Part shown: one piece after another, positions 1-10,914 of the stretch
How positions within the stretch are numbered: the stretch's first letter is position 1
How the letters are laid out: each line of letters begins with the position of its first letter
DNA from: Bacteroidales bacterium
GTDB lineage: Bacteria; Bacteroidota; Bacteroidia; Bacteroidales; UBA12077
Reading direction: 5' to 3'
Assembly (NCBI GenBank): GCA_028282585.1
Contig: JANQHR010000069.1
Coordinates: 1 to 10,914, forward strand
Length of the DNA stretch: 10,914 bases
The notes under the pieces: generated by a model
What the model saw: only the letters and a program-made list of their open reading frames with translations
What the model was told of the DNA's origin: nothing
The model's database searches: none
Made by a program: the position numbers and the translations under genes

Positions 1-2703
1 AGCACATAAATATTTGTCTCCTTTTTTATCTTCTCTTGATATTACTGAAGCGGTTTCGATATTTGGGTAACTTAAAATACAACTCTCAATTTCTCCCAAT
101 TCAATCCGAAAACCTCTAATTTTTACCTGGTTATCTAAACGCCCTAAAAATTCAATATTACCATCTGGTAACCAACGTGCCAAATCTCCGGTCTTATACA
201 ATAATTCTCCTTCTTTATAAGGATTAATAATAAATTTATCTCTTGTTAATTCCGGTTTATTTAAATAACCCCGTGCTAAACCATCGCCCCCAACAAGTAA
301 TTCTCCAACAATACCTATGGGTTGTAATTGCATATTGTTAAAAATATAAGCTGTAGAATTGCTTATGGGTTTACCTATAGGAATGTTATGGTTATATTCT
401 TTTTCTATTTTAAAGGTGGTTGAAAATGTTGTATTTTCTGTTGGACCATAACCATTTATTATGACTAATTGATTGTTCCGGTTTCTGATTCTTGAAATAT
501 GTGTACTAGATAATACGTCTCCTCCTACCAATAAATATGATAGATTATCAAAAATCGATTCATTTGTGTCTACTAATTGATTGAATAAATTTGATGTTAA
601 CCATAAGGTGGTAATATTATTCTTAGTTATGTAATTTTGTAATAAATCGCCATTTAAGATCACATGGTCTTTTGCAATAAATAAAGTTCCCCCGTTTAGT
701 AAAGCAATCCAAATCTCAAATGTTGTTGCATCGAATACTAATGCGCCGGTCATCAATACTTTGTGATTGAAATTCGTTGGAATATAATTCGTATTCTTTA
801 CTAAACGGACAACACTCTTATGGTCAATCCCAACGCCTTTAGGTTCTCCGGTAGAACCAGATGTAAACATAACATAAGCTAAATCACTAGTATTCCTGCC
901 TAAAGATTTAAAATCATTACTAGAATTGTTAACTTCATCACTATCAATTATAACTGTTGTCCCTTTAAATGAATAATCAAATTGAGTATCTCTGCTTGTC
1001 AATAATATTGAAATTCTACATTCCGATATTATTTTTCCAATTCTTTCTGAAGGATACTTGTGGTCAATTGGTACGTAAGTACAACCTGATTTTATGATTC
1101 CAAGGATACCAACAATCATTTCCGAAGAACGGCCTGTTATAAAACCAATTAATTGATTCTCTTTTACTCCCTTTTGAACTAAACAATTAGCAACTTTGTT
1201 TGCTTTGGAATTTAATTCACTATAAGTATAGGACGAATTATCATCAATTAATGCTAAATAACCAGGTATTTGCTCAACCTGCTCCTCAAAAAGTTCATGA
1301 ATGAGTTTATCTTTAGGGTAAGATTGTTTTGTATCATTAAAATCATGTAACAACTGTTGTTTCTCTGACTCTGAAAGAATATTTAAGCTTTGGACATTTG
1401 AGCCGATGTGGTAAATTATTGATTCTAATATGCTTAAAAGATGTTTGCTAATGCCTTCAACTTGATACTCTGCTAAATTTGTAGTAGAATAATTAAAATG
1501 TATTTCAATTTCTTCACTTACTAAAGCAGTGATAGTTAATTTATAATTGGTAGTTTCCTGAACCGAGAATGATTTTACTTTTAAATTTTCATTACCTTTA
1601 ATATATTTTCTTTCGATAGGATAATTTTCAATTACAAATATTGACTCCAGTAATTCATCTTCTTTGTAACCTGCGTAACTTAAAATTTTTTGTAAAGGTA
1701 CATTTTCGTATATTGTTCTATCTCTTAATTGTATTGCATTGTTTTTAATATCACTAATTAAACTTCCTGTTTGAGAAAATTTCAATCGAATTGGAATCGT
1801 ATTTATAAACAAACCTACGATTTCTTCAATCCCATTTAACTTAATATTTCTTCCTGATACTGTAGTCGCAAATAGAACATCTGTCTTATTGGAATATTTA
1901 GTTAATAAGATTCCCCAAGCATTATATAAAATATCAGCTCTCGTTAATCCGTATGATTTACATATATTATCAATTTGTTTAACTTTATTTGAGCTAATTA
2001 ATAACTTAACACTCTCTCCGCTATCCTCATCAGATAAAGAATTTTTATTGACATGAAAACAATTTCTTCTTTCATAATTATTTAAATAATCTTTCCAAAA
2101 CTGTTTACTTTTTAAATCTATCTCCTTATTTATATTAATAAAATATTTAAATGGTGTTTTTTGGATATTTATTACTTCTTCTCCATTTACCAACTTATTA
2201 TAGTTTGATAAAAACTCTTTAAGAATAATAGCATTACTCCATCCGTCATATATAATATGATGATTGCTTATTAACAAATAATATTTATTAGAATCAACTT
2301 TGCATAAAGTTAAACGGAAAGGTACATCCCTTAGATCAAACCTTTCAGAGTAATCTTTACATTGAATATTATGGAATTCTGTTACAGAACCTCGACCTTC
2401 TTTTTTTGTTAAATCAAAATAGCGAAAATCAACATCATGCTTTTTTAAGATTATTTGAATTGGCTTATTTAATTTTTCCCATCTAAATACTGTTCTTAAC
2501 ATTTCATTAGATTCAATAACCTTATACCAGGCTTTCCTGAAATAATCAACATCTATATTTCCTTGAATTTCTAATGATAATTGAACAAAATATAAATTAC
2601 TGAATATATCTTTCAAATAATGAAATAAGATTCCTTCTTGTAAAGATGTCAAACTAATAATATTATCAACATTAGCTTTATCCAACTTATAACTCTTATT
2701 CAT
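1..2703 (-). CDS. Nonribosomal peptide synthetase 2, truncated by the window edge: N-terminal COM acceptor, DCL-type condensation domain, adenylation domain (predicted Val)
   Basis: ATG at 2703-2701; the segments I translated by hand stay in one frame down to position 1 (901 codons). N-terminus MNKSYKLDKANVDNIISLTSLQEGILFHY; C-domain core SNHHIIYDGWS (~2236-2268); A-domain motifs LAYVMFTSGSTGEPKG (~835-882), FDATTFEIW, NGYGPTENTTFS, YKTGDLARW, GRLDNQVKIRGFRIELGEIE. Missing from the ORF track, presumably because its stop codon lies outside the window. Confidence 0.95.
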   Translation of the reverse strand, partial: MNKSYKLDKANVDNIISLTSLQEGILFHYLKDIFSNLYFVQLSLEIQGNIDVDYFRKAWYKVIESNEMLRTVFRWEKLNKPIQIILKKHDVDFRYFDLTKKEGRGSVTEFHNIQCKDYSERFDLRDVPFRLTLCKVDSNKYYLLISNHHIIYDGWSNAIILKEFLSNYNKLVNGEEVINIQKTPFKYFININKEIDLKSKQFWKDYLNNYERRNCFHVNKNSLSDEDSGESVKLLISSNKVKQIDNICKSYGLTRADILYNAWGILLTKYSNKTDVLFATTVSGRNIKLNGIEEIVGLFINTIPIRLKFSQTGSLISDIKNNAIQLRDRTIYENVPLQKILSYAGYKEDELLESIFVIENYPIERKYIKGNENLKVKSFSVQETTNYKLTITALVSEEIEIHFNYSTTNLAEYQVEGISKHLLSILESIIYHIGSNVQSLNILSESEKQQLLHDFNDTKQSYPKDKLIHELFEEQVEQIPGYLALIDDNSSYTYSELNSKANKVANCLVQKGVKENQLIGFITGRSSEMIVGILGIIKSGCTYVPIDHKYPSERIGKIISECRISILLTSRDTQFDYSFKGTTVIIDSDEVNNSSNDFKSLGRNTSDLAYVMFTSGSTGEPKGVGIDHKSVVRLVKNTNYIPTNFNHKVLMTGALVFDATTFEIWIALLNGGTLFIAKDHVILNGDLLQNYITKNNITTLWLTSNLFNQLVDTNESIFDNLSYLLVGGDVLSSTHISRIRNRNNQLVIINGYGPTENTTFSTTFKIEKEYNHNIPIGKPISNSTAYIFNNMQLQPIGIVGELLVGGDGLARGYLNKPELTRDKFIINPYKEGELLYKTGDLARWLPDGNIEFLGRLDNQVKIRGFRIELGEIESCILSYPNIETASVISREDKKGDKYLCA

Positions 2704-2726: not shown

Positions 2727-2777
2727 ACAAGCATTAAAACTTCCGTTATAATATTTATAAGAATAATTTTAGCTTGT
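2727..2777 (-). other. Long imperfect intergenic stem-loop between NRPS-1 and NRPS-2
   Basis: Minus strand ACAAGC-TAAAA-TTATTC-TTATAA-ATA-TTATAA-CGGAAG-TTTTA-AT-GCTTGT pairs end to end with small bulges; no U-tract follows. Confidence 0.55.
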
Positions 2778-5700
2778 TAAAAAAGGCTTTCTAATTCTTC
2801 TTCACTTAGTTCAACCGTATCAAAATCTGAAGGCGTAAAATGAATCTCAGTATTATTGGACAGATACAGAAAAATCCCATTTATATTTCTTTCAATTCCC
2901 TCTCTTATGACAGTTAATTCATGATAATCTAGCATACTTTTATTACAAATAATATCGATAATTAACTTTCCATCTATTATAAAACTATTCACTTCTAGAT
3001 TAGTAGTAAATTCATTTTTATTCGAGATATCTTCTCCGGTATAATCATTTATAAATGAGAATAGGTCATTTGACAATTCCTTTCCAAACTGTCCCATGTA
3101 GTTAAATCTAACTTCGGATCTTCTCTTAGTTAATTTATTAAATTTTTTATTGATATATTTTAATACTCCATACCCTAAACCGTTTTTAGGGATGTTACGT
3201 AACTGCTCTTTTACAAGCTTTAATATATCATTAATATTATTACTATTTAAAATAAATTCTACAGGATAAATTGATGTAAACCACCCTATAGTTCTTGACA
3301 CATCTATACCCTCAATTATCCGACCGTAACTTTCCGTGTCAATTATAAATGTATCTTTATTGTAATGTTCTCTTAATGTTTTTAACAAAGAACTTATTAA
3401 CAAAATTTGAATATCCGTACCATACGATATATTGGCATCTTTTAGTAAATAATCTGTCTTTTCTTTATCAATTATAATTTGAGACCTAGAACCCTCTCCT
3501 CTAAAAGGTGTTTTATTTTCTTTATAGTCAAATAGCTTAAGTTCCTTTTCTTCAATTCTGTTCCAAAAATTGGACTGATCCATTAATTCGTTAGAACTTG
3601 CATATTTATTAATTGCATTCTGCCAATCAATAAGATTTGCGGTTTTTTGAGGAAGATAAAAGGTTCTTTTCTTTTCTAAATTCAAATATATGGTGTACAA
3701 GTCTTCTAATAGTATTCTCCACGACAATCCATCTATTACCAAATGATGAGAAGTTATCAATAATCTATCGGCTTTGCCATTCTGTCTTATAATAGCAGCT
3801 TTTATTAATAAAGTATTCGTGATATCAAATTTAGATTTAATTTTTATTCCTAAGCTTTCAATTTCATCCTTATGATTAATAAAATATTCATCAACTTCAA
3901 ATGGCTGATTAAGATATTCATTATTGAAATACATTAATCTGCTTTTCGGATTGAAATTCATTCTTAAACCATCATGGTGCTCAATAATTTTATCAAATGT
4001 TTGTTCCAGAAGGTTTCTGTTTATATTCCTCTTAAATTCCAATAATAAGGATTGATTATAATAATTTTGATCTTTAAAATTCTGTTCAAAGAACCATTTT
4101 TCAATTACACTTAATTTTTTTTCTCCTGTAACAATTCCTTGATCATACTCTTCATTTGATTTTTTTACGCATTTACATATTTGTTCGATGGATTGATTTA
4201 CAAGAATTTCGTTTGCCAATAATGAATAACCTTTATTATATAAACGCGATGTAATTTGAACTGCTTTTATGGAATCTCCTCCTATCTGAAAAAAATTATC
4301 ATCAATTCCTATTTCATCAACATTAAGAACTTTCTGAAATATTTCCACCAGCAGTTTTTGAATTTCATTTTCTGCTGCGCGAATCTCTTTTCCTTTTTTT
4401 AATAAATTTAATGACAATAGTGCTTCTTTATCTACTTTACCGTTACGAGTTAAAGGAATATTATCAATATTGAAAAAAGCATTAGGAATCATGTAAGATG
4501 GCAAACGGTTTTGAATATGATTTCGCAAAGCATTCTCACAGATATCAGTTTTTGAAGTATAGTATGCAAATAATTTATATATACCATCAATATTGGATTG
4601 TATAACTACAGTTGATTTAATATCCTCAAATTCCAGAATACATTTTTCAATTTCACCTAATTCGATTCGATAACCATTTATTTTAACTTGATGATCTGAT
4701 CTTCCAAGAAACTCTATTTGCCCGCTTTCATTAAATCTTGCCAAATCTCCAGTTTTATACAACTTTTTTTCTGATAGCTCAGAAACCGTTATAAACTTAT
4801 CATATGTTAAACTTTTTTTACTATGATAACCTCTGCCTACACCTAAACCTCCTACAAAGATCTCTCCAGTTATTCCTCTTGGAACAGGATTATTATATTT
4901 ATCCAATAAATAAATATGAACATTATCTGCTGGTTTCCCAATTGGAATAGATTTATTATATTTTTCTTTATGTTTAAATTTATAAATCATACAACCAACT
5001 GTAGTTTCTGTTGGTCCATATTCATTAAATATCTCGATCCTGTTATTAAACATACAAGAAATTTCATTTGCCAATTCAGATGCCAAATCTTCTCCTCCAA
5101 CAATGAATCTCTTAAGATTTTTTATATTTTCAGGATTAATTTTATGATCATCCCTTATCAGCTTTAAGTGCGAAGGTGTAAGTTTTATTACTCCTACTCT
5201 ATCTTCTAATAGTACCTGCTCAATTAATAAATTTCGATCATTTTCTTGATAAATAAAAATAGAATTACCGGTTACTAGAGGTAGAAATAGGGAAGTAACG
5301 GTTAAATCAAAAGCCACTGAAGTAAATAATGGAAAATGAACTTTTTCATTTTTAACATATTGTTTTTGAGCCCACCAAATATAATTCAATAAATTTCCAT
5401 GCTCAATCATTACTCCTTTTGGTTGACCAGAAGTACCTGATGTATAAATCATGTAAGCTAAATTGTTTGACTTAATATTTATTTTATATTCAGGTAAATT
5501 CAAATCATACTTATTTAAATCATCAACACATATTATTTTATCTTTTGAGAATTCATTTAAAATATTCTTGTTAGATTCTTGAGTCGCTTTTGTAGTAAGT
5601 ATTAAAATGGGGTTACAATCATCTAATATGTACTTTTTCCTTGATTCCGGGTAATTTATATCAACCGGAACATATGCCCCCCCTGCTTTAAGAATTGCTA

Positions 5701-8700
5701 AAACCGATACTACAAATTCAATAGATTTATCCATTAAAATCGCTACAAACGCCTCATTTTTGACACCCTCATGTACCAATATTTTTGCTAATTCATTAGC
5801 TTCATTATTTAGTTCCATATATGATAATTGAACATCTCCACAAATAAGAGCTTCTGCATCTGGATTATCTAAAGATCGATTTTCAAATAATTCATGAATA
5901 AGTACGTCGGGATTATCTGAGCCTGTTTTATTATATTCTGAAATTAATCCAATCTTTTTCTTATCGGAAATAATATCAATATCCTTAATATTAGAACCTG
6001 GATTATCAATTATACTTTTAATAATTTGTATAAAATATTCAGAATATTCTTTAATAGTGCCTTCTTTGAATAAAGCAGTAGAATATTCAAATGTAAAATC
6101 TATATTCTCATTCTCAAATAATTCTAAACTAATATCAAACTTTGAAGTTTTCTGATCTACCGGAAAATAAGATATCTCGAATTCGTTATTAGAAAATGTA
6201 GGAAAAGTCATATTTTGATATACAAACATAGTATCAAATAATGAATTATTCTCATCTGAAGATTTATGATTAAGAAGGTTTAATAACTCATTATATGGCA
6301 AATCTTTATTGTTCATTGACTGGACAAATTCCTTATTAATATCATTTAAATATTGAATAAACCGGGTATTTCCTTTCGGGTAAAATCTTATTGGTAAATT
6401 ATTTACAAACATTCCCACAGTTTCAATAAATTTACCATGATTTCGACCTGCTTCAGCAATACCTATTATCATATCCTCTTGTCCAGTAATTTTATGCATT
6501 AACAATGAATAGCATGCAAAAAGAATTACAGATTTTGAAACTTCTGTTTTCCGAGAAAGGTCTTCAATAGATCGATTAAGGTTTGAACCAAGACTACCAT
6601 AAAATCTGGCTCCATCATAATTGCTTGTATTTACTTTCGGAAAATCATACGGTAAGTCTAATTTAGGAACATCATCACTAAACTTATTCAACCAATAATT
6701 TTTAATCTCTTGATTAATTTTGCTATTCAAAAATTTCTCTTCCCAAAGCACAAAATCTGCATACTCATATTCTATTTTTTCTGTTTTTCTATTTTGTACC
6801 AGATTTAAGTAATCATGAATTATTTTAATAAGAGAACTACCATCTGCAACAATATGGTGAATATCAAATAACAATACAGTTACATTATTAATAAATGCAT
6901 ATTTCAAACGTATTAATGGCAAAATTTCTAAATTAAAAGGTGTTACATAATTTAATACCTGTTTTTCAAACCTCTCGTCGCTTCTTAACTTCATTTCTTC
7001 AAATGAAATAACAGATTCATTATGAACATATTGATATGGTTTACCATCCTCAAAATGAAATGTTGTTTTAAAAATATCATATGCATTAATTAATTCGATT
7101 AAAGCGTTCTTTAATCTATTAATTTCAACTTCACCCTTGAGAATAAAACCTTGGGGAAGATTATAAGCAAGCGATAGTTTATTCAATTGATAAAAATAAA
7201 ATAACCTATTTTGTGCATGAGATAATCTAAATCTTTTATTTTCATTACGTTCAATTTTATACGATTCTATGTTCTTCTTACTTTGAGCAAGTTTGGAAAG
7301 TCCTTTTATTGTTTTTATTGTATATATATCTTCCAATGATATATCCATATTCAACTCCCCTCGAAGTTCTGCAACCAACTGACTAGCTTTTAAAGAGTTT
7401 CCTCCAATAGCAAAAAAGTCATCTTCAAGGTTTATATCTTTTCTACCTAATATCCTCTGCCAGATTTGTAAAACATTTTTTTCAGAATTACTTAATGATT
7501 CTATAACTCTTTCCTTTCTTTCTTTCTTAATTAACACGTTCAATCTAGATATAATATCAACATAATGACCATTTTGGTAATTTTGTAAAAGTTTATACCG
7601 TTGAATTTTTCCACTAGTTGTTTTTGGAATTCCTTTTACAGGAATAACATGATCTAAATGTATTCCAACCTTCTTATTAATAACTTCAATACATGACTTT
7701 CTAATACTGACAAAACTTTCAAGCATTCCTCTATACAAAATAAATGCAATTATCTCGTCTCTTGATAAACTAGAATTATAATTTCCGACGATTACAACTT
7801 TCCCTAATTCAACTTCTTTGACCTGTTCTGCAATTCTTTCCAGATCATGAGAATAGTAATTTTCTCCATTCACAAATATGATATCTTTCTCTCTTCCGAC
7901 AATATATAGCTCACCATACGTATCCTTAAACCCCAGATCTCCTGTATCCACCCAACCATCATTTGTGACTAATCTTAAAGTATCCTTTTGATTATTATAA
8001 TAGCCCGAAGTAACATTTTTACCTTTTATTTGGATTCTTCCCACATAACCATTCTCCAAAGCTTTATCTTCTCTATTAACAAGGCGGATATAAGTATTTT
8101 TAATTTGTTTTCCAACACTTACAAATTGAATACTTGAATTATTTTGATCTGTATGGATAATTTTTTCACCAATATTCAAGTGATTTCTATCTACATGAAC
8201 CGAAAATATATTTTTCTCTGGTTTAGAAAAAGATACAGCAAGACTCGCTTCCGCTAAACCGTATACCGGAAATATAGTATTATCTTTTAATCCATAGCTT
8301 TTAAAGTAATTGTTAAACTTTTGACATATTTCTTTAGATATTGGTTCAGCTCCATTAACAATTATTCGCAAGCTTGATAAATCAATGTTGTGATTTTTTT
8401 CTGGCCTGAAATGTTTTAATAAATATTGGTAGCCAAAATTAGGAGAAGAAGTAAATGTAATTTTATAATCGGCAATTTTCCTAAGCCAAAGTGAAGGATT
8501 TCGCATAAATAGCTCAGTGGGCATTATAAAGTGATTCCAACCTTTATAAAGGGGTGTTAGATGAAAGCCTATAAGCCCCATATCATGTGTCAAAGGCATC
8601 CAGCTATAAAACTTATCTCCCTCCTGAGGACTATAAATTCCATGATGTATTGACTCTATATTAGTATATAAGTTCTGATGAGTTAAAATAACTCCTTTTG

Positions 8701-9214
8701 GATTTCCTGTCGATCCAGATGAAAATTGTATATATGCTATATCATTTTCAGTAATCTCCTTTATTTCTCCTTGTACATTACTGTCGGAATCATCTGTTAA
8801 AATAAGTCTATCTCTTATCAAGTTTTTAAGTTCTTGATCTAATTTAACATTCTTAGAATAATTCTCGTTAGTGGTTATTAGATAAGGAGAATATAAAACT
8901 TTGATTATATTTTTTAATTTTTCCTTTAAATCTTCGGTTAAAGCATAGTTAACAGGAACAGGAATAATTCTTCCCAATATACAAGCCCAAAATGTCTCAA
9001 TAAATATATTAGGCTCTTGTAATTGAAATACCAGTTCGTCCCCCTCATTAATACCAAACTGTTGTAATCTTCCCAAGGTAAAAATAGCCCTCTTATTCAA
9101 TTCTTCATAAGAAACAAATGAATCATTACCAATACTATTGATATACGTAATGCCTTTATTAGAACAATTACCTAATCTCAAGAAAATATTCTGTAAGTTA
9201 TTTTGAGAAGTCAT
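2777..9214 (-). CDS. Lipopeptide-initiating NRPS, ~2145 aa: FAAL (fatty acyl-AMP ligase)-ACP-C-A(Asn)-PCP-E-COM donor
   Basis: FAAL motifs IQFSSGSTGNPKG, SWMPLTHDMGLI, YGLAEAS, TGDLGF, PKTTSGKIQR; carrier GGNSL; C core HHIVADG; A motifs YTSGTSGQPKG, FDLTVTS, NEYGPTETTVG, NGKVDK; PCP GGDSI; E motifs HHLVIDGLSWRILLEDL, SRTIGWFTSIYP, GLGYGVL, FNYMGQF; C-terminal TPSDF plus acidic tail. The start is placed at Met16 of the tracked ORF (ATG 9214-9212, MTSQNN). This removes the overlap with upxY and matches where MycA-type FAALs begin; the tracked start at 9259 is less likely. Confidence 0.95.
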   Translation of the reverse strand: MTSQNNLQNIFLRLGNCSNKGITYINSIGNDSFVSYEELNKRAIFTLGRLQQFGINEGDELVFQLQEPNIFIETFWACILGRIIPVPVNYALTEDLKEKLKNIIKVLYSPYLITTNENYSKNVKLDQELKNLIRDRLILTDDSDSNVQGEIKEITENDIAYIQFSSGSTGNPKGVILTHQNLYTNIESIHHGIYSPQEGDKFYSWMPLTHDMGLIGFHLTPLYKGWNHFIMPTELFMRNPSLWLRKIADYKITFTSSPNFGYQYLLKHFRPEKNHNIDLSSLRIIVNGAEPISKEICQKFNNYFKSYGLKDNTIFPVYGLAEASLAVSFSKPEKNIFSVHVDRNHLNIGEKIIHTDQNNSSIQFVSVGKQIKNTYIRLVNREDKALENGYVGRIQIKGKNVTSGYYNNQKDTLRLVTNDGWVDTGDLGFKDTYGELYIVGREKDIIFVNGENYYSHDLERIAEQVKEVELGKVVIVGNYNSSLSRDEIIAFILYRGMLESFVSIRKSCIEVINKKVGIHLDHVIPVKGIPKTTSGKIQRYKLLQNYQNGHYVDIISRLNVLIKKERKERVIESLSNSEKNVLQIWQRILGRKDINLEDDFFAIGGNSLKASQLVAELRGELNMDISLEDIYTIKTIKGLSKLAQSKKNIESYKIERNENKRFRLSHAQNRLFYFYQLNKLSLAYNLPQGFILKGEVEINRLKNALIELINAYDIFKTTFHFEDGKPYQYVHNESVISFEEMKLRSDERFEKQVLNYVTPFNLEILPLIRLKYAFINNVTVLLFDIHHIVADGSSLIKIIHDYLNLVQNRKTEKIEYEYADFVLWEEKFLNSKINQEIKNYWLNKFSDDVPKLDLPYDFPKVNTSNYDGARFYGSLGSNLNRSIEDLSRKTEVSKSVILFACYSLLMHKITGQEDMIIGIAEAGRNHGKFIETVGMFVNNLPIRFYPKGNTRFIQYLNDINKEFVQSMNNKDLPYNELLNLLNHKSSDENNSLFDTMFVYQNMTFPTFSNNEFEISYFPVDQKTSKFDISLELFENENIDFTFEYSTALFKEGTIKEYSEYFIQIIKSIIDNPGSNIKDIDIISDKKKIGLISEYNKTGSDNPDVLIHELFENRSLDNPDAEALICGDVQLSYMELNNEANELAKILVHEGVKNEAFVAILMDKSIEFVVSVLAILKAGGAYVPVDINYPESRKKYILDDCNPILILTTKATQESNKNILNEFSKDKIICVDDLNKYDLNLPEYKINIKSNNLAYMIYTSGTSGQPKGVMIEHGNLLNYIWWAQKQYVKNEKVHFPLFTSVAFDLTVTSLFLPLVTGNSIFIYQENDRNLLIEQVLLEDRVGVIKLTPSHLKLIRDDHKINPENIKNLKRFIVGGEDLASELANEISCMFNNRIEIFNEYGPTETTVGCMIYKFKHKEKYNKSIPIGKPADNVHIYLLDKYNNPVPRGITGEIFVGGLGVGRGYHSKKSLTYDKFITVSELSEKKLYKTGDLARFNESGQIEFLGRSDHQVKINGYRIELGEIEKCILEFEDIKSTVVIQSNIDGIYKLFAYYTSKTDICENALRNHIQNRLPSYMIPNAFFNIDNIPLTRNGKVDKEALLSLNLLKKGKEIRAAENEIQKLLVEIFQKVLNVDEIGIDDNFFQIGGDSIKAVQITSRLYNKGYSLLANEILVNQSIEQICKCVKKSNEEYDQGIVTGEKKLSVIEKWFFEQNFKDQNYYNQSLLLEFKRNINRNLLEQTFDKIIEHHDGLRMNFNPKSRLMYFNNEYLNQPFEVDEYFINHKDEIESLGIKIKSKFDITNTLLIKAAIIRQNGKADRLLITSHHLVIDGLSWRILLEDLYTIYLNLEKKRTFYLPQKTANLIDWQNAINKYASSNELMDQSNFWNRIEEKELKLFDYKENKTPFRGEGSRSQIIIDKEKTDYLLKDANISYGTDIQILLISSLLKTLREHYNKDTFIIDTESYGRIIEGIDVSRTIGWFTSIYPVEFILNSNNINDILKLVKEQLRNIPKNGLGYGVLKYINKKFNKLTKRRSEVRFNYMGQFGKELSNDLFSFINDYTGEDISNKNEFTTNLEVNSFIIDGKLIIDIICNKSMLDYHELTVIREGIERNINGIFLYLSNNTEIHFTPSDFDTVELSEEELESLF
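2780..4140 (-). other. Epimerisation domain plus C-terminal COM donor; approximate bounds
   Basis: LSVIEKWFF, HHDGLRM, HHLVIDGLSW, ESYGR (variant of EGHGRE), SRTIGWFTSIYPV, VKEQLRNIP, FNYMGQF, TPSDFDTVELSEEELESLF. Confidence 0.88.
4165..4375 (-). other. Peptidyl carrier domain of the type preceding epimerisation domains; approximate bounds
   Basis: DDNFFQIGGDSIKAVQI; GGDSI (4271-4282 region) is typical of PCPs that serve E domains. Confidence 0.9.
4420..5900 (-). other. Adenylation domain of NRPS-1, Stachelhaus code DLTKIGEVGK (Asn); approximate bounds
   Basis: Code read by manual alignment to GrsA: FDLTVTS (D,L,T), VIKLTPS (K), FIVGGE (I,G), NEYGPTETTVG (E,V,G), NGK (K). DLTKIGEVGK is the established Asn code. 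Confidence 0.88.
5960..7225 (-). other. Condensation domain of NRPS-1 (couples the acyl chain to Asn); approximate bounds
   Basis: LSHAQNRLF...YNLP, HHIVADGSS (~6839-6859), VGMFVNNLPIR, SKFDISL, FEYSTALFKEGTI. Confidence 0.9.
7280..7490 (-). other. Acyl carrier (thiolation) domain of NRPS-1; approximate bounds
   Basis: IWQRILG...DDFFAIGGNSLKASQL with the phosphopantetheinylation Ser (~7394-7405). Confidence 0.9.
7570..9214 (-). other. FAAL domain of NRPS-1 (MycA/ItuA-like acyl-AMP ligase); approximate bounds
   Basis: FWACILGRIIPVPV, SWMPLTHDMGLIG, MPTELFMRNPSLW, SSPNFGY and GREKDIIFVNG closely resemble the mycosubtilin/iturin N-terminal ligase as I recall it. A FAAL-type insertion (HVDRNHLNIGEKIIH...) follows YGLAEAS. 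Confidence 0.85.
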
Positions 9215-9246
9215 TGACACTAGCCTTTTTACATAGCATAAAATAA

Positions 9247-9768
9247 CTATGAATAACACATTTTAACACTTTCTATATAGTTTGAAGGTACATTAATAAT
9301 TAATGATTGCTTTAATGAAACTATTTTAACTGCAAACCTTTGGCTTCCACGCTCTTCAAGTAAAACCCCCTCCAGTCCGCATAAAGGACCTTCGTTGATT
9401 AACACCTTAGTTCCTATTTTTAAATCATCACTAACTTCTACAGTAGACTTCTTACTTATAATATAGTTTATCTGATCTATTTCTTTTTGCTTTATAAAAA
9501 CAGGATCTTTACAAAATGTGACGCAACTAATAACCTTTGGTGTCTTTAGTATATCAAAGATTTTATTACGTTCAATATTCACAAAAATATAATTGGGAAA
9601 TAAAGGAACTTGTAAACGTTTCTTTCTGTCACTCCAGTTTTTAACTATCCAATGTAATGGCAAAAAAGTTTCATAACCTTCTCTTTGTAAGTACTTTTGC
9701 ACCTTTCTTTCAAATTTAGGATAAGTGTAAAAAACGTACCACTTCTTTGTAAAAAAAATAGAATCCAT
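9247..9768 (-). CDS. upxY: UpxY-family (NusG paralogue) transcription antiterminator, 173 aa
   Basis: NGN domain: KWYVFYTYPKFERKV...FLPL...WSDRKKRLQVPLFPNYIFV (the WSDRKK..PLF segment is characteristic of Bacteroidota UpxY-like proteins). KOW domain: GTKVLINEGPLCGLEG. First gene of the operon; 32 nt separate it from the likely NRPS start. Confidence 0.9.
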   Translation of the reverse strand: MDSIFFTKKWYVFYTYPKFERKVQKYLQREGYETFLPLHWIVKNWSDRKKRLQVPLFPNYIFVNIERNKIFDILKTPKVISCVTFCKDPVFIKQKEIDQINYIISKKSTVEVSDDLKIGTKVLINEGPLCGLEGVLLEERGSQRFAVKIVSLKQSLIINVPSNYIESVKMCYS

Positions 9769-10066
9769 AAGTTACTTTAATAAAATTAACCAGGTTAAAC
9801 TTTTTCTTCTTATAGCAATTTCCAGACATAGAAATCCCATTAGAGCTTTTATTAAAATCCCTTAAAGTATCATCTATACGTTCAAAAAACAGAAAGAGGG
9901 TCTATTGCTATGTAAGCTAATAACAATTCTCGAATTATATCAGTATTGGAGAAAAACCAAGTTAATAAAAGAAGAATTCAATTTGTAGGCTACACAGTCA
10001 ATAAATTAGAGTTATAGTTTTTGCTTATATTCTTAAACAAAACGCCTAATATTAATTTCAGGACAC

Positions 10067-10075
10067 AGCTTCGCT
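10067..10075 (-). promoter_or_regulatory. Candidate ops-like pause / antiterminator loading site (AGCGAAGCT)
   Basis: The minus (non-template) strand reads TTATA-AGCGAAGCT-GTGTCC: a GC-rich mini-hairpin (AGC-GAA-GCT) in an AT-rich leader ~300 nt upstream of upxY. It resembles the GCG...AGC core of E. coli ops (GGCGGTAGnnTG). Confidence 0.5.
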
Positions 10076-10127
10076 TATAAAACTCACAAAACTGGTTCAT
10101 TTTAATAAAGCAAATAAAGTTTATATA

Positions 10128-10157
10128 CGAAAATAAAAATTTTAATTTAAATTTCAA
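10128..10157 (-). promoter_or_regulatory. Putative Bacteroidota housekeeping-sigma promoter for the upxY-NRPS operon
   Basis: Minus strand: TTG (10157-10155), 19-nt spacer, TATTTTCG (10135-10128). One mismatch to the TTG-N19-TAnnTTTG (-33/-7) consensus; it would start transcription ~45 nt upstream of the ops-like site. Confidence 0.4.
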
Positions 10158-10174
10158 TGTTATCAAACTAAAAC

Positions 10175-10200
10175 TATAACTTTTTAACAAAAAAGTTATA
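10175..10200. repeat. Perfect 11-bp inverted repeat (TATAACTTTTT-AACA-AAAAAGTTATA); operator or hairpin
   Basis: Read directly: arms 10175-10185 and 10190-10200, 4-nt spacer. Confidence 0.7.
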
Positions 10201-10238
10201 TATCCATAACATTTATATAGCATGGTAAGTGCATAACA

Positions 10239-10246
10239 CAAACTTA
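10239..10246 (-). promoter_or_regulatory. Alternative -7 promoter box (TAAGTTTG)
   Basis: Exact TAnnTTTG match on the minus strand, but no TTG/TTTG at the expected -33 spacing. Confidence 0.25.
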
Positions 10247-10610
10247 AAATGTATTTTATAATACGTCTGTGATAAAGTAGTTAGTCTTATTTTAAATCCC
10301 TATTCAGAATATTTATTATTCTAATGAGTAAATTATCAACAAAAGTTGGTATTAAAAATTTAATCAAATTATCATATAAAATGTATTTAGCAAGCTATTT
10401 GGATACTTCATATGAAACATTTTCTAACATGTTGCTATCTTATATTCTTTATCTACATGAAATTGTTTAAAATATAGTCCTTACAACATTTCATTATCTC
10501 TTAACCAGATCGAGAAACTATTTAATGGACGCATAATGCTTTTAAAATAAATTTGATATAGTTCTGTTTAAGCGACCATAATTTAAATGTTATACTAAGA
10601 TAATTCAGAT

Positions 10611-10648
10611 ATAATAACATTCGCTTTACATTATAATATTCTTCGCTT
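10611..10648. repeat. Imperfect direct repeat, 22-bp period (ATAATAnnnTTCGCTT x2)
   Basis: ATAATAACATTCGCTT (10611-10626) and ATAATATTCTTCGCTT (10633-10648); 13/16 identical. Confidence 0.5.
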
Positions 10649-10869
10649 ATTGAAACACCACTAATGTATAATAATTTATAAAAAATTGATTGTAAAGTTC
10701 TTACAAATTAATTTCAATTCTTACAAGCTCCACTACAATCTCAAAACTCTAAAAAACAAAATTAATCACTTGATCTAATCTTTCTTTTTGATTCTAGCTA
10801 CCCATTTTTAGTACTTATGTGTTTATTTATAAAATATCTTTACTATTATTGTATAGATTTTAGAATAAA

Positions 10870-10914
10870 ATGAATTTTCAGGGAATAAATAAAAATAAAC
10901 AAGTTATGGATAAG
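10870..10914 (+). CDS. Possible N-terminus of a divergently transcribed gene (truncated by the window edge)
   Basis: The frame from ATG 10870 is open to the end (MNFQGINKNKQVMDK). The second ATG at 10906 follows an A-rich stretch (AAAAATAAACAAGTT) typical of Bacteroidota translation starts. Too short to identify. Confidence 0.3.
   Translation, partial: MNFQGINKNKQVMDK

Follow-up and report, generated by a model that had tools for sequence, protein, structure and literature searches.

An asparagine-coded, fatty-acid-loading synthetase as the probable head of an N-acyl-D-asparagine prodrug pathway in Bacteroidota

[quoted passage not shown] To our knowledge, acyl-D-Asn leaders mark compounds toxic enough to need masking by their producer, and the cases known to us are colibactin, zwittermicin, xenocoumacin, amicoumacin, paenilamicin and edeine. 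The window, that is, the whole stretch of DNA analysed (10,914 nucleotides), is one whole contig, and the ORF list places its NRPS genes on the minus strand. We estimate a probability of about three in four that it encodes the first part of an N-acyl-D-asparagine prodrug pathway. Its features are as follows.

9247 to 9768, minus strand: UpxY-family (NusG-like) transcription antiterminator (Pfam NusG, 1.9e-22; NCBIfam antiterm_UpxY, 142 bits, cut-off 100)
2777 to 9259, minus strand: starter NRPS P0001, FAAL-ACP-C-A(Asn)-PCP-E, 2160 aa as listed (Pfam, NCBIfam, phmmer)
7562 to 9127, minus strand: FAAL domain, P0001 residues 45-566 (NCBIfam fatty acyl-AMP ligase match)
7280 to 7489, minus strand: first carrier domain (ACP), residues 591-660, motif FFAIGGNSLKA (best Pfam PP-binding stretch 596-656)
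5954 to 7231, minus strand: starter-position C domain, residues 677-1102, motif HHIVADG (Pfam Condensation 677-1102)
4430 to 5884, minus strand: A domain, residues 1126-1610, code DLTKIGEVGK, Asn type (Pfam and code read-out)
4145 to 4354, minus strand: PCP, residues 1636-1705, motif FFQIGGDSIKA (Pfam, phmmer)
2780 to 4114, minus strand: E domain, residues 1716-2160, motifs HHLVIDG, ESYGR, GWFTSIYP and FNYMG (second Condensation-family stretch)
1 to 2703, minus strand: 5' part of the second NRPS, P0002, C then A, ORF open at the contig end (Pfam, phmmer)

In P0001, Pfam finds AMP-binding, PP-binding and Condensation-family stretches, two of each kind, and the domain map was drawn with phmmer. 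The earlier note had described this protein as carrier-C-A-PCP-E, and the order was right but incomplete, because 7490 is where the first carrier starts and the same ORF continues upstream with the overlooked FAAL. The FAAL stretch is matched by NCBIfam PRK09192 over residues 47-566 with 410 bits, which is under that model's cut-off of 600, and FadD32-type NCBIfam matches cover it as well. The ACP motif GGNSL is kept in all ten heads that cover the region and the PCP motif GGDSI in 11 of 11; the GGDSI carrier and terminal E domain reported before are thus both present, with E-domain motifs that are intact here and conserved across heads. In a tree internal to the cluster, this E domain pairs (100/100) with the only other E domain of the assembly line.

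The ten specificity positions of the A domain, placed by what we take to be the Stachelhaus scheme with motif landmarks taken from the sequence itself, read DLTKIGEVGK, exactly as had been claimed. The identical ten residues stand in ZmaO of the zwittermicin pathway, as read from the ZmaO-P0001 alignment, and DLTK[IV]GE[VI]GK is found together with the fused FAAL-ACP in 11 of the 11 Bacteroidota heads examined. The domain is accordingly read here as predicted to be Asn-specific. Asn would not be exclusive to the leader, since two further modules of the cluster carry Asn-type codes.

The gene that follows, P0002, does begin with a C domain (residues 16-448), as expected from the earlier reading, and its A domain (473-898, code DAFWLGGT..) is broken off by the contig end. 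This C domain groups (100/99) with the one other in the cluster that comes after an E domain, and may be of the post-E (DCL) type, as far as can be suggested by a tree that is internal to the cluster, has long branches and includes no DCL/LCL reference set. On the other side, the antiterminator gene lies immediately 5' of the starter NRPS and overlaps its annotated start, a GTG at 9259; ATG at 9214 is the likelier start, because alignment with the orthologues of P0001 begins only at residue 16-22. Orthologues of the antiterminator (60-64% identity) adjoin the head on its upstream side in two related genomes, G006 and G016, and antiterminator-like genes stand immediately 5' of three of seven heads in distant Bacteroidota.

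If the head makes a leader, a peptidase that removes it should be sought, and a ZmaM/ClbP-type fusion is indeed encoded in the same genome, on contig C124, where it closes an NRPS/PKS cluster that is cut off at its 5' end by the contig border.

C124:34610-37684, strand not given: ZmaM/ClbP-type peptidase fused to an ABC exporter, P0004 (PF00144 and PF00005)

P0004 starts with a signal peptide, followed by a beta-lactamase fold (44-345) that contains SxxK and the Tyr motif; three TM helices and the ABC ATPase (825-957) make up a half-transporter of the cyclic-peptide type, and TIGR01194 matches it with 340 bits (cut-off 286). The zmaM gene was located by means of a published primer, and its product is 38% identical to P0004 end to end (1021 columns). 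A full-length ClbP sequence matches at 2.4e-43, extending into the TM helices. The structure model of P0004 (pLDDT 89.6) has full-length ClbP as all of its best four PDB fold matches, with TM-scores of 0.78-0.79 (query) and 0.85-0.87 (target), and superposes on it including the three-helix membrane domain. At ClbP-equivalent positions P0004 keeps E92, S95, K98, Y186, K240, N257, N331, W460, W466 and P468, the set reported by Velilla et al. to mark prodrug peptidases, while equivalents of K235 and D387 are not conserved in the P0004-ClbP alignment as read. Both the peptidase and the ABC domain are present in 117 of 120 P0004 homologues among the matches listed.

We infer the head-to-tail link in this genome, since the window is a whole contig. 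The high end of C124 begins within a PCP, and the low end of the window stops about 86 residues earlier, in an A domain, so that the proposed join would run from window position 1 to C124 position 121020. The two ends share no sequence overlap, and a metagenome scan found no contig bridging them. The part on C124 comprises about 13 NRPS modules beyond those of the window, plus a single PKS module, and the full assembly line would count about 15 A domains with one KS-AT module. Glycosyltransferase and B12-radical-SAM domains are also present in it, and three genes of the cluster, for a 3-hydroxyacyl-CoA dehydrogenase, an FkbH-like HAD phosphatase and an acyl-CoA dehydrogenase, would serve an unusual PKS extender.

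Other genomes show how head and tail are distributed. Among 40 relatives the head occurs only in G003, G006 and G016, and the tail in those same three; P0001 is 55-57% identical to their full-length orthologues, and its homologues in five further Bacteroidota genomes reach 38-41% identity. In G006 the 18 condensation matches are confined to two places, where the contig with the head ends and where the contig with the tail begins, which by elimination would put both in one cluster. All five long-contig Bacteroidota genomes show the pairing directly: each of seven heads shares contig and strand with one of seven tails, at a distance of 0.85-94 kb. Identity is 55-72% for head and tail genes but only 30-45% for the middle modules, and the pair is conserved in four or more Bacteroidota lineages. 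The guess of a Bacteroidota host, made from the letters alone, fits both the UpxY-family antiterminator and the Bacteroidota names of the nearest homologues; some homologue names may point to Acidobacteriota.

These observations support the prodrug reading of the earlier note, with a ZmaO-like, Asn-coded head that co-occurs with the tail and is linked to it in relatives. The computational checks suggested in that note all favoured its reading, and its refuting condition of a genome that lacks a D-Asn peptidase homologue does not apply here. Because an acyl-D-Asn head and a matching exporter-peptidase share one genome, the cell probably makes its antibiotic in masked form, by analogy with Bacillus and zwittermicin. 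In the pathway that we propose, the FAAL would adenylate a free fatty acid and load it on its own ACP, the starter C domain would couple it to PCP-held Asn, and the E domain would turn Asn into D-Asn. The N-acyl-D-Asn unit would then be handed to module 2, predicted to activate Val, and the chain would pass through the approximately 13 NRPS modules and the PKS module of C124. P0004 would export the capped precursor via its ABC half-transporter, and its periplasm-facing, ClbP-like S12 peptidase would be the putative enzyme cutting after D-Asn, freeing the amine of the active compound and releasing N-acyl-D-Asn.

The product could instead be an ordinary lipopeptide that keeps acyl-D-Asn when mature, with P0004 serving only as exporter and its beta-lactamase-fold domain having another role or none. 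FAAL-ACP-C starts usually lipidate the peptide, and the residue at the ClbP 188 position is Asn in this lineage. P0004 shares this Asn with a 97%-identical protein from another assembly; P0005 has it too, whereas Thr stands there in the ten other Bacteroidota members examined and in ZmaM. According to Velilla et al., Asn at position 188 is the general S12 state, D-Asn recognition in ClbP involves E92, Ser/Thr188, N331, W460 and W466, and the S188N mutant of ClbP keeps its D-Asn specificity and loses activity. We nevertheless regard the lipopeptide as unlikely, as P0004 retains the catalytic triad with the other four leader-recognition residues and resembles ZmaM over its whole length, the Asn-type code is found in every head examined, and head and tail stay together although the middle modules between them are unrelated. 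It is very improbable, in our view, that P0004 acts on a different D-residue, the cell wall or some other substrate, as a PBP-like resistance or housekeeping protein unrelated to a leader. The genome does encode 21 further S12 paralogues, and the top PDB sequence match of the soluble domain is an S. aureus FmtA-like protein (2.9e-57), above ClbP; however, the FmtA-like protein lacks an N331 equivalent in the alignment as read, the ClbP match extends over the TM helices and comes top by fold, and P0004-type proteins always lie within NRPS clusters, adjoining or 3' of an Asn head. None of the 21 paralogues has Glu at E92, and only two have Asn at N331.

The gap between the contigs also leaves room for a head from some other NRPS locus that was not assembled (with C148, C97, C25 or C31), the peptidase then serving another pathway. 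The assembly has four 3'-open NRPS ends against fewer 5'-open ones, those of C148, C97 and C25 could in principle precede C124, and contamination of the genome is estimated at 3.9%. Base composition argues for the proposed join: the NRPS genes of the window have a GC content of 0.284, at the mean of the C124 NRPS 3-kb windows (0.287 +/- 0.013, maximum 0.335), whereas C148 (0.336) and the NRPS part of C97 (0.333) sit at the upper limit of that range or slightly beyond it. Since, in addition, tblastn finds in this genome no FAAL joined to NRPS domains other than that of P0001, P0004 is its sole ZmaM-type tail, and the two are linked in every relative whose contigs permit a test, we consider a separate locus quite improbable.

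With the prodrug pathway as the preferred reading, a wider suggestion can be offered tentatively, at somewhat less than even odds: the antiterminator, the FAAL-ACP-C-A(Asn)-PCP-E head and the ClbP-ABC tail, with small conserved neighbours, may form a portable self-protection cassette, attached to many unrelated assembly lines in Bacteroidota and possibly, from homologue names, in Acidobacteriota. This would imply a large hidden family of masked antibiotics, and the product here could represent a novel scaffold: a glycosylated, amine-terminated peptide-polyketide of about 15 residues whose C-methyl groups would come from B12-radical-SAM domains located inside adenylation domains. In Bacteroidota the masking logic appears in the form of a conserved head-tail pair, with heads consistently fused to FAAL-ACP and middle modules that vary by species. 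The Asn-coded head with the fused peptidase offers a handle for genome mining, and a chemical one is offered by free N-acyl-D-Asn or by the acyl-D-Asn boronate inhibitors already published; both could aid antibiotic discovery in a phylum from which few natural products have been characterised. A literature search found no characterised Bacteroidota example of an acyl-D-Asn prodrug pathway, in agreement with the earlier note, and the published survey of ClbP homologues puts most of them in Firmicutes and some in Proteobacteria and Actinobacteria.

Of the known systems, zwittermicin of Bacillus cereus, from another phylum, is compared first. ZmaM and P0004 have the same architecture (signal peptide, S12 peptidase, TM helices, ABC ATPase), and ZmaO is 32% identical to P0001 residues 676-2160 over 1537 aligned columns in a collinear C-A-PCP-E, the C and E domains each aligning with their counterparts. 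The zma cluster shares with that of C124 the 3-hydroxyacyl-CoA dehydrogenase, FkbH-like HAD phosphatase and acyl-CoA dehydrogenase, and G003, of the same genus as our genome, has Dap-synthesis and carbamoyltransferase genes resembling those of zma. ZmaO, however, with 1498 aa against the 2160 aa of P0001, lacks FAAL-ACP, position 188 of ZmaM is Thr and not Asn, and the zma assembly line is far smaller, without B12-radical-SAM and glycosyltransferase domains. In colibactin biosynthesis of E. coli, ClbN has the C-A-PCP-E order of P0001 and is reported to make N-acyl-D-Asn from acyl-CoA, where P0001 has its fused FAAL-ACP. ClbP stands alone at about 500 aa with no ABC fusion; its catalytic and most of its D-Asn-binding residues are conserved in P0004, but it has Ser at position 188 and His at 257, where P0004 has Asn at both, and colibactin is unrelated to the product predicted here.

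FAAL-ACP-C starts are the usual route to lipidation of the first residue in non-ribosomal peptides, and FAAL-initiated lipopeptide synthetases, which keep their lipid tail, share with P0001 the N-terminal FAAL-ACP followed by a C domain. Unlike in those, the lipidated D-Asn here would come from a ZmaO-like C-A-T-E unit with a leader peptidase alongside. The difference from the Firmicutes and Proteobacteria systems is that the lipid would be activated in cis by the fused FAAL-ACP, which is absent from the Firmicutes heads examined, and the peptidase lineage of this genome differs in having Asn, not Ser or Thr, at ClbP position 188.

The window is one complete contig, C126, of 10,914 bases. The genome to which it belongs (G000; 4.89 Mb in 173 contigs, 31.9% GC, estimated contamination 3.9%) contributes three long ORFs in this stretch, all of them on the minus strand:

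window 9768..9247, minus strand: UpxY-family NusG-like antiterminator, 173 aa (profile matches)
window 9259..2777, minus strand: starter NRPS P0001, 2160 aa (ORF and domain profiles)
window 2703..1, minus strand: second NRPS P0002, first 901 residues, cut off by the contig end (ORF and domain profiles)

Pfam, NCBIfam and phmmer mapping resolved P0001 as FAAL(45-566)-ACP(591-660)-C(677-1102)-A(1126-1610)-PCP(1636-1705)-E(1716-2160). The carrier-C-A-PCP-E order described in the earlier note is thus correct, and its interval begins exactly at the first carrier, but the FAAL, which lies in the same ORF (7562-9127), had been missed. The A-domain specificity residues were read again as DLTKIGEVGK and the PCP preceding the E domain does carry GGDSI, both as claimed before, while the E domain keeps all of its HHxxxDG, ExxxGR, GWFT and FNYxG motifs. 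ZmaO, the zwittermicin starter NRPS, is a C-A-PCP-E protein without FAAL-ACP; it aligns with P0001 residues 676-2160 at 32% identity, and its ten code residues, read off this alignment, are identical to those of P0001. P0002 opens with a C domain, which in a tree of 18 C/E domains pairs (100/99) with the cluster's only other C domain directly after an E domain. This pairing is what would be expected of a C domain of the D-donor-accepting type, in a tree that is an internal comparison within the one cluster and has long branches.

With the listed GTG start at 9259, P0001 would share 13 bases with the antiterminator gene. Since orthologue alignments begin only at residue 16-22, translation more likely starts from the ATG at 9214. 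Upstream of the antiterminator, 1.1 kb of AT-rich sequence (window 9769-10914, GC about 0.25) holds no ORF longer than 83 aa and none that is convincing, and Rfam gave zero matches anywhere in the window; this segment is presumably a leader or promoter region running to the contig end.

The ClbP/XcnG/ZmaM-like peptidase that the earlier note proposed to look for is encoded elsewhere in the genome, fused to an ABC transporter and matching both ClbP (the colibactin peptidase) and ZmaM (the zwittermicin peptidase-ABC protein). Pfam Beta-lactamase gave 22 matches in the genome, the top one in a frame of about 1030 aa on another contig, C124:

C124:34610-37684, minus strand: P0004, 1024 aa, with an N-terminal hydrophobic leader, a beta-lactamase fold (44-345), about nine hydrophobic segments and an ABC ATPase (825-957)

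P0004 scores above the cut-off for TIGR01194 (cyclic peptide export ABC transporter), and among PDB sequences its residues 32-460 match full-length ClbP, membrane helices included (2.4e-43). The AlphaFold model of residues 1-490 (pLDDT 89.6) has full-length ClbP structures as its four best fold matches, with 459-466 aligned columns. ZmaM, whose gene was placed on a B. cereus plasmid by means of a published primer, aligns with P0004 end to end (38% identity, 1021 columns).

According to the available text of Velilla et al. (PMC9889268), prodrug-activating peptidases strictly conserve N331, W460 and W466 (ClbP numbering), share a highly conserved E92 unlike the wider S12 family, conserve K240 and P468, carry His or Asn at position 257, and have Ser or Thr at position 188, where the wider S12 family has Asn. 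In P0004 the equivalents E83, S86, K89, Y180, K232, N249 (position 257), N319, W446, W452 and P454 are all present, and among the 21 other S12 paralogues of the genome none has Glu at E92 and two have Asn at N331. The equivalent of position 188 is Asn182. This residue is real, because the 97%-identical counterpart in another assembly also has Asn there; Thr occupies the position in 10 other Bacteroidota members examined, in ZmaM and in 6 of 7 further fused homologues, and is at least 90% conserved in a 26-sequence alignment. In the ClbP S188N variant, as the same available text describes it, the D-Asn substrate was still the only one cleaved, at a reduced rate (PMC9889268).

Whether the head (P0001) and the tail (P0004) belong to one cluster depends on the join between the window and C124, whose NRPS/PKS region extends from about 42 kb to the contig end at 121,020, entirely on the minus strand. 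The last ORF of C124 has an open 5' end and begins inside a PCP, P0002 breaks off at about position 429 of the 485 of its A domain, and joining the two would need a gap of about 86 residues. Neither the window start nor the C124 end shares a suffix-prefix overlap of 15-300 bases with any contig, and a scan of metagenome contigs in which P0002 was the query brought up just two distant loci (28% and 20% identity) and no bridge. The join is not forced, since other NRPS fragments with open ends are present in the genome on C148, C97 (8049-10508), C25 (2407-4026) and C31, which represent a second NRPS locus or else foreign contigs. Their GC is 0.30-0.34 (C148 0.336, NRPS part of C97 0.333) versus 0.284 for the two window NRPS genes, and the C124 NRPS region has 0.287 ± 0.013, with a maximum of 0.335 in 3-kb windows, so that base composition argues for the window-C124 join. 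Additionally, the tblastn search of the genome turned up a single FAAL that is fused to NRPS domains.

Co-occurrence in other genomes bears on the same join. Among 40 relatives searched (24 of the same genus), full-length tail orthologues (64-67% identity) were found only in G003, G006 and G016, and for the first 1110 residues of the head, too, orthologues (55-57%) were found only in the same three, which are kin and hence non-independent cases. Every one of the 18 condensation-domain matches in G006 falls either at the end of the head contig or at the start of the tail contig, and therefore these two ends must meet. Between species, the head, the antiterminator, the tail and the small tail-side genes (S51-type peptidase, metallophosphoesterase, MBL-fold protein, thioesterase, PPTase) are 50-72% identical, and the middle NRPS genes 30-45%. 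G006 and G016 do not show strict synteny gene by gene, as orthology is limited to the head and tail genes.

Five long-contig Bacteroidota genomes picked from 80 loci (Chitinophaga varians, Chitinophaga sp. Ak27, Pedobacter cryoconitis, a Chryseobacterium MAG and a Sphingobacteriales MAG) contained seven head homologues (38-41% identity), six of full length (2134-2212 aa) and one split in two frames, and seven fused peptidases. For every head there is a tail on the same contig in the same orientation, 31-94 kb downstream in six cases and 0.85 kb upstream in one. The split head, one of three in the Sphingobacteriales MAG (G042:C2:5525500-5532300), consists of overlapping frames of 863 and 1368 aa and is due either to a frameshift or to misassembly. 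The code DLTK[IV]GE[VI]GK is present in 11 of 11 heads. The heads next to ZmaM-like genes in four Firmicutes genomes lack FAAL-ACP and are C-A-PCP-E proteins of 1499-1577 aa; Pseudoalteromonas, the fifth genome in that search, yielded no match at the threshold applied. G000 and two same-genus relatives (G006, G016) have an UpxY-family antiterminator gene immediately upstream of the head; in the distant Bacteroidota one adjoins 3 of 7 heads, three more are within about 10 kb of either a head or a tail, and none was found in the Chryseobacterium MAG. Positions of these genes are:

G006:C1:301887-302405, UpxY-family antiterminator
G016:C152:19172-19690, UpxY-family antiterminator
G042:C2:5532437-5532919 and 2200695-2201180, UpxY-family antiterminators
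G044:C39:26076-26561, UpxY-family antiterminator

The cluster also occurs in a small form in the same-genus relative G003 (G003:C34:1-20000 and G003:C9:20000-32154). After the head come SbnA/SbnB-like diaminopropionate genes, a carbamoyltransferase, an FkbH-type cassette and only a handful of NRPS domains, and the tail is on a different contig; the gene content resembles zwittermicin biosynthesis.

C124 contributes 13 further A domains, a second E domain, one KS-AT-KR module, several stand-alone radical-SAM enzymes, an aminotransferase and a MacB/FtsX-type permease. The KS-AT-KR(-DH-like) module (C124:96644-110937, minus) adjoins genes for a 3-hydroxyacyl-CoA dehydrogenase, an FkbH-like HAD protein, a methyltransferase and an acyl-CoA dehydrogenase, which look like a hydroxy/methoxymalonyl-ACP extender cassette of the type that the zwittermicin cluster likewise has. 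A GT4-type glycosyltransferase domain (residues about 887-1198) lies within an NRPS, flanked by a PCP and the C domain that comes after it (C124:88027-95223, minus). A radical-SAM and B12-binding block interrupts three A domains between the core motif A2 and A3 regions:

C124:110954-116254, minus strand: interrupted A domain, with a second interruption further on
C124:82924-87870, minus strand: interrupted A domain
C124:70993-79812, minus strand: interrupted A domain

A literature search at the level of listings found no description of radical-SAM domains embedded in A domains.

Of 8000 candidates scored, 485 were homologues of P0004 with E ≤ 0.001. Among the matches listed (the best 120 of 485), 117 of 120 have both the peptidase and the ABC domain, those with names are annotated as cyclic peptide export ABC transporters, and the sources include Marinifilaceae, Bacteroidales, Cyclobacteriaceae, Aquimarina, Dokdonia and Fulvivirga within Bacteroidota, and Aminicenantes and Acidobacteriota outside it. 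The available text of the ClbP survey places most prodrug peptidases in Firmicutes and some in Proteobacteria and Actinobacteria (PMC9889268). No characterised acyl-D-Asn prodrug pathway of Bacteroidota was found in literature mostly from outside subscription journals and without supplements, and by term matching 'prodrug', 'D-Asn' and 'ClbP' are absent from the accessible text of three Bacteroidota natural-product papers (PMC12181424, PMC9248904, PMC12677607).

Every computational test available supports a prodrug pathway, in which P0004 would cut an N-acyl-D-Asn leader off the NRPS product on export, and we consider this probable (roughly 0.75); its weak points are the contig gap, the Asn at position 188 and its purely computational basis. 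The logic would be the same as that of ZmaO/ZmaM. Unlike that system, the present one has a fused FAAL-ACP loader and belongs to a different phylum, and its head and tail form a conserved cassette around diverse assembly lines.
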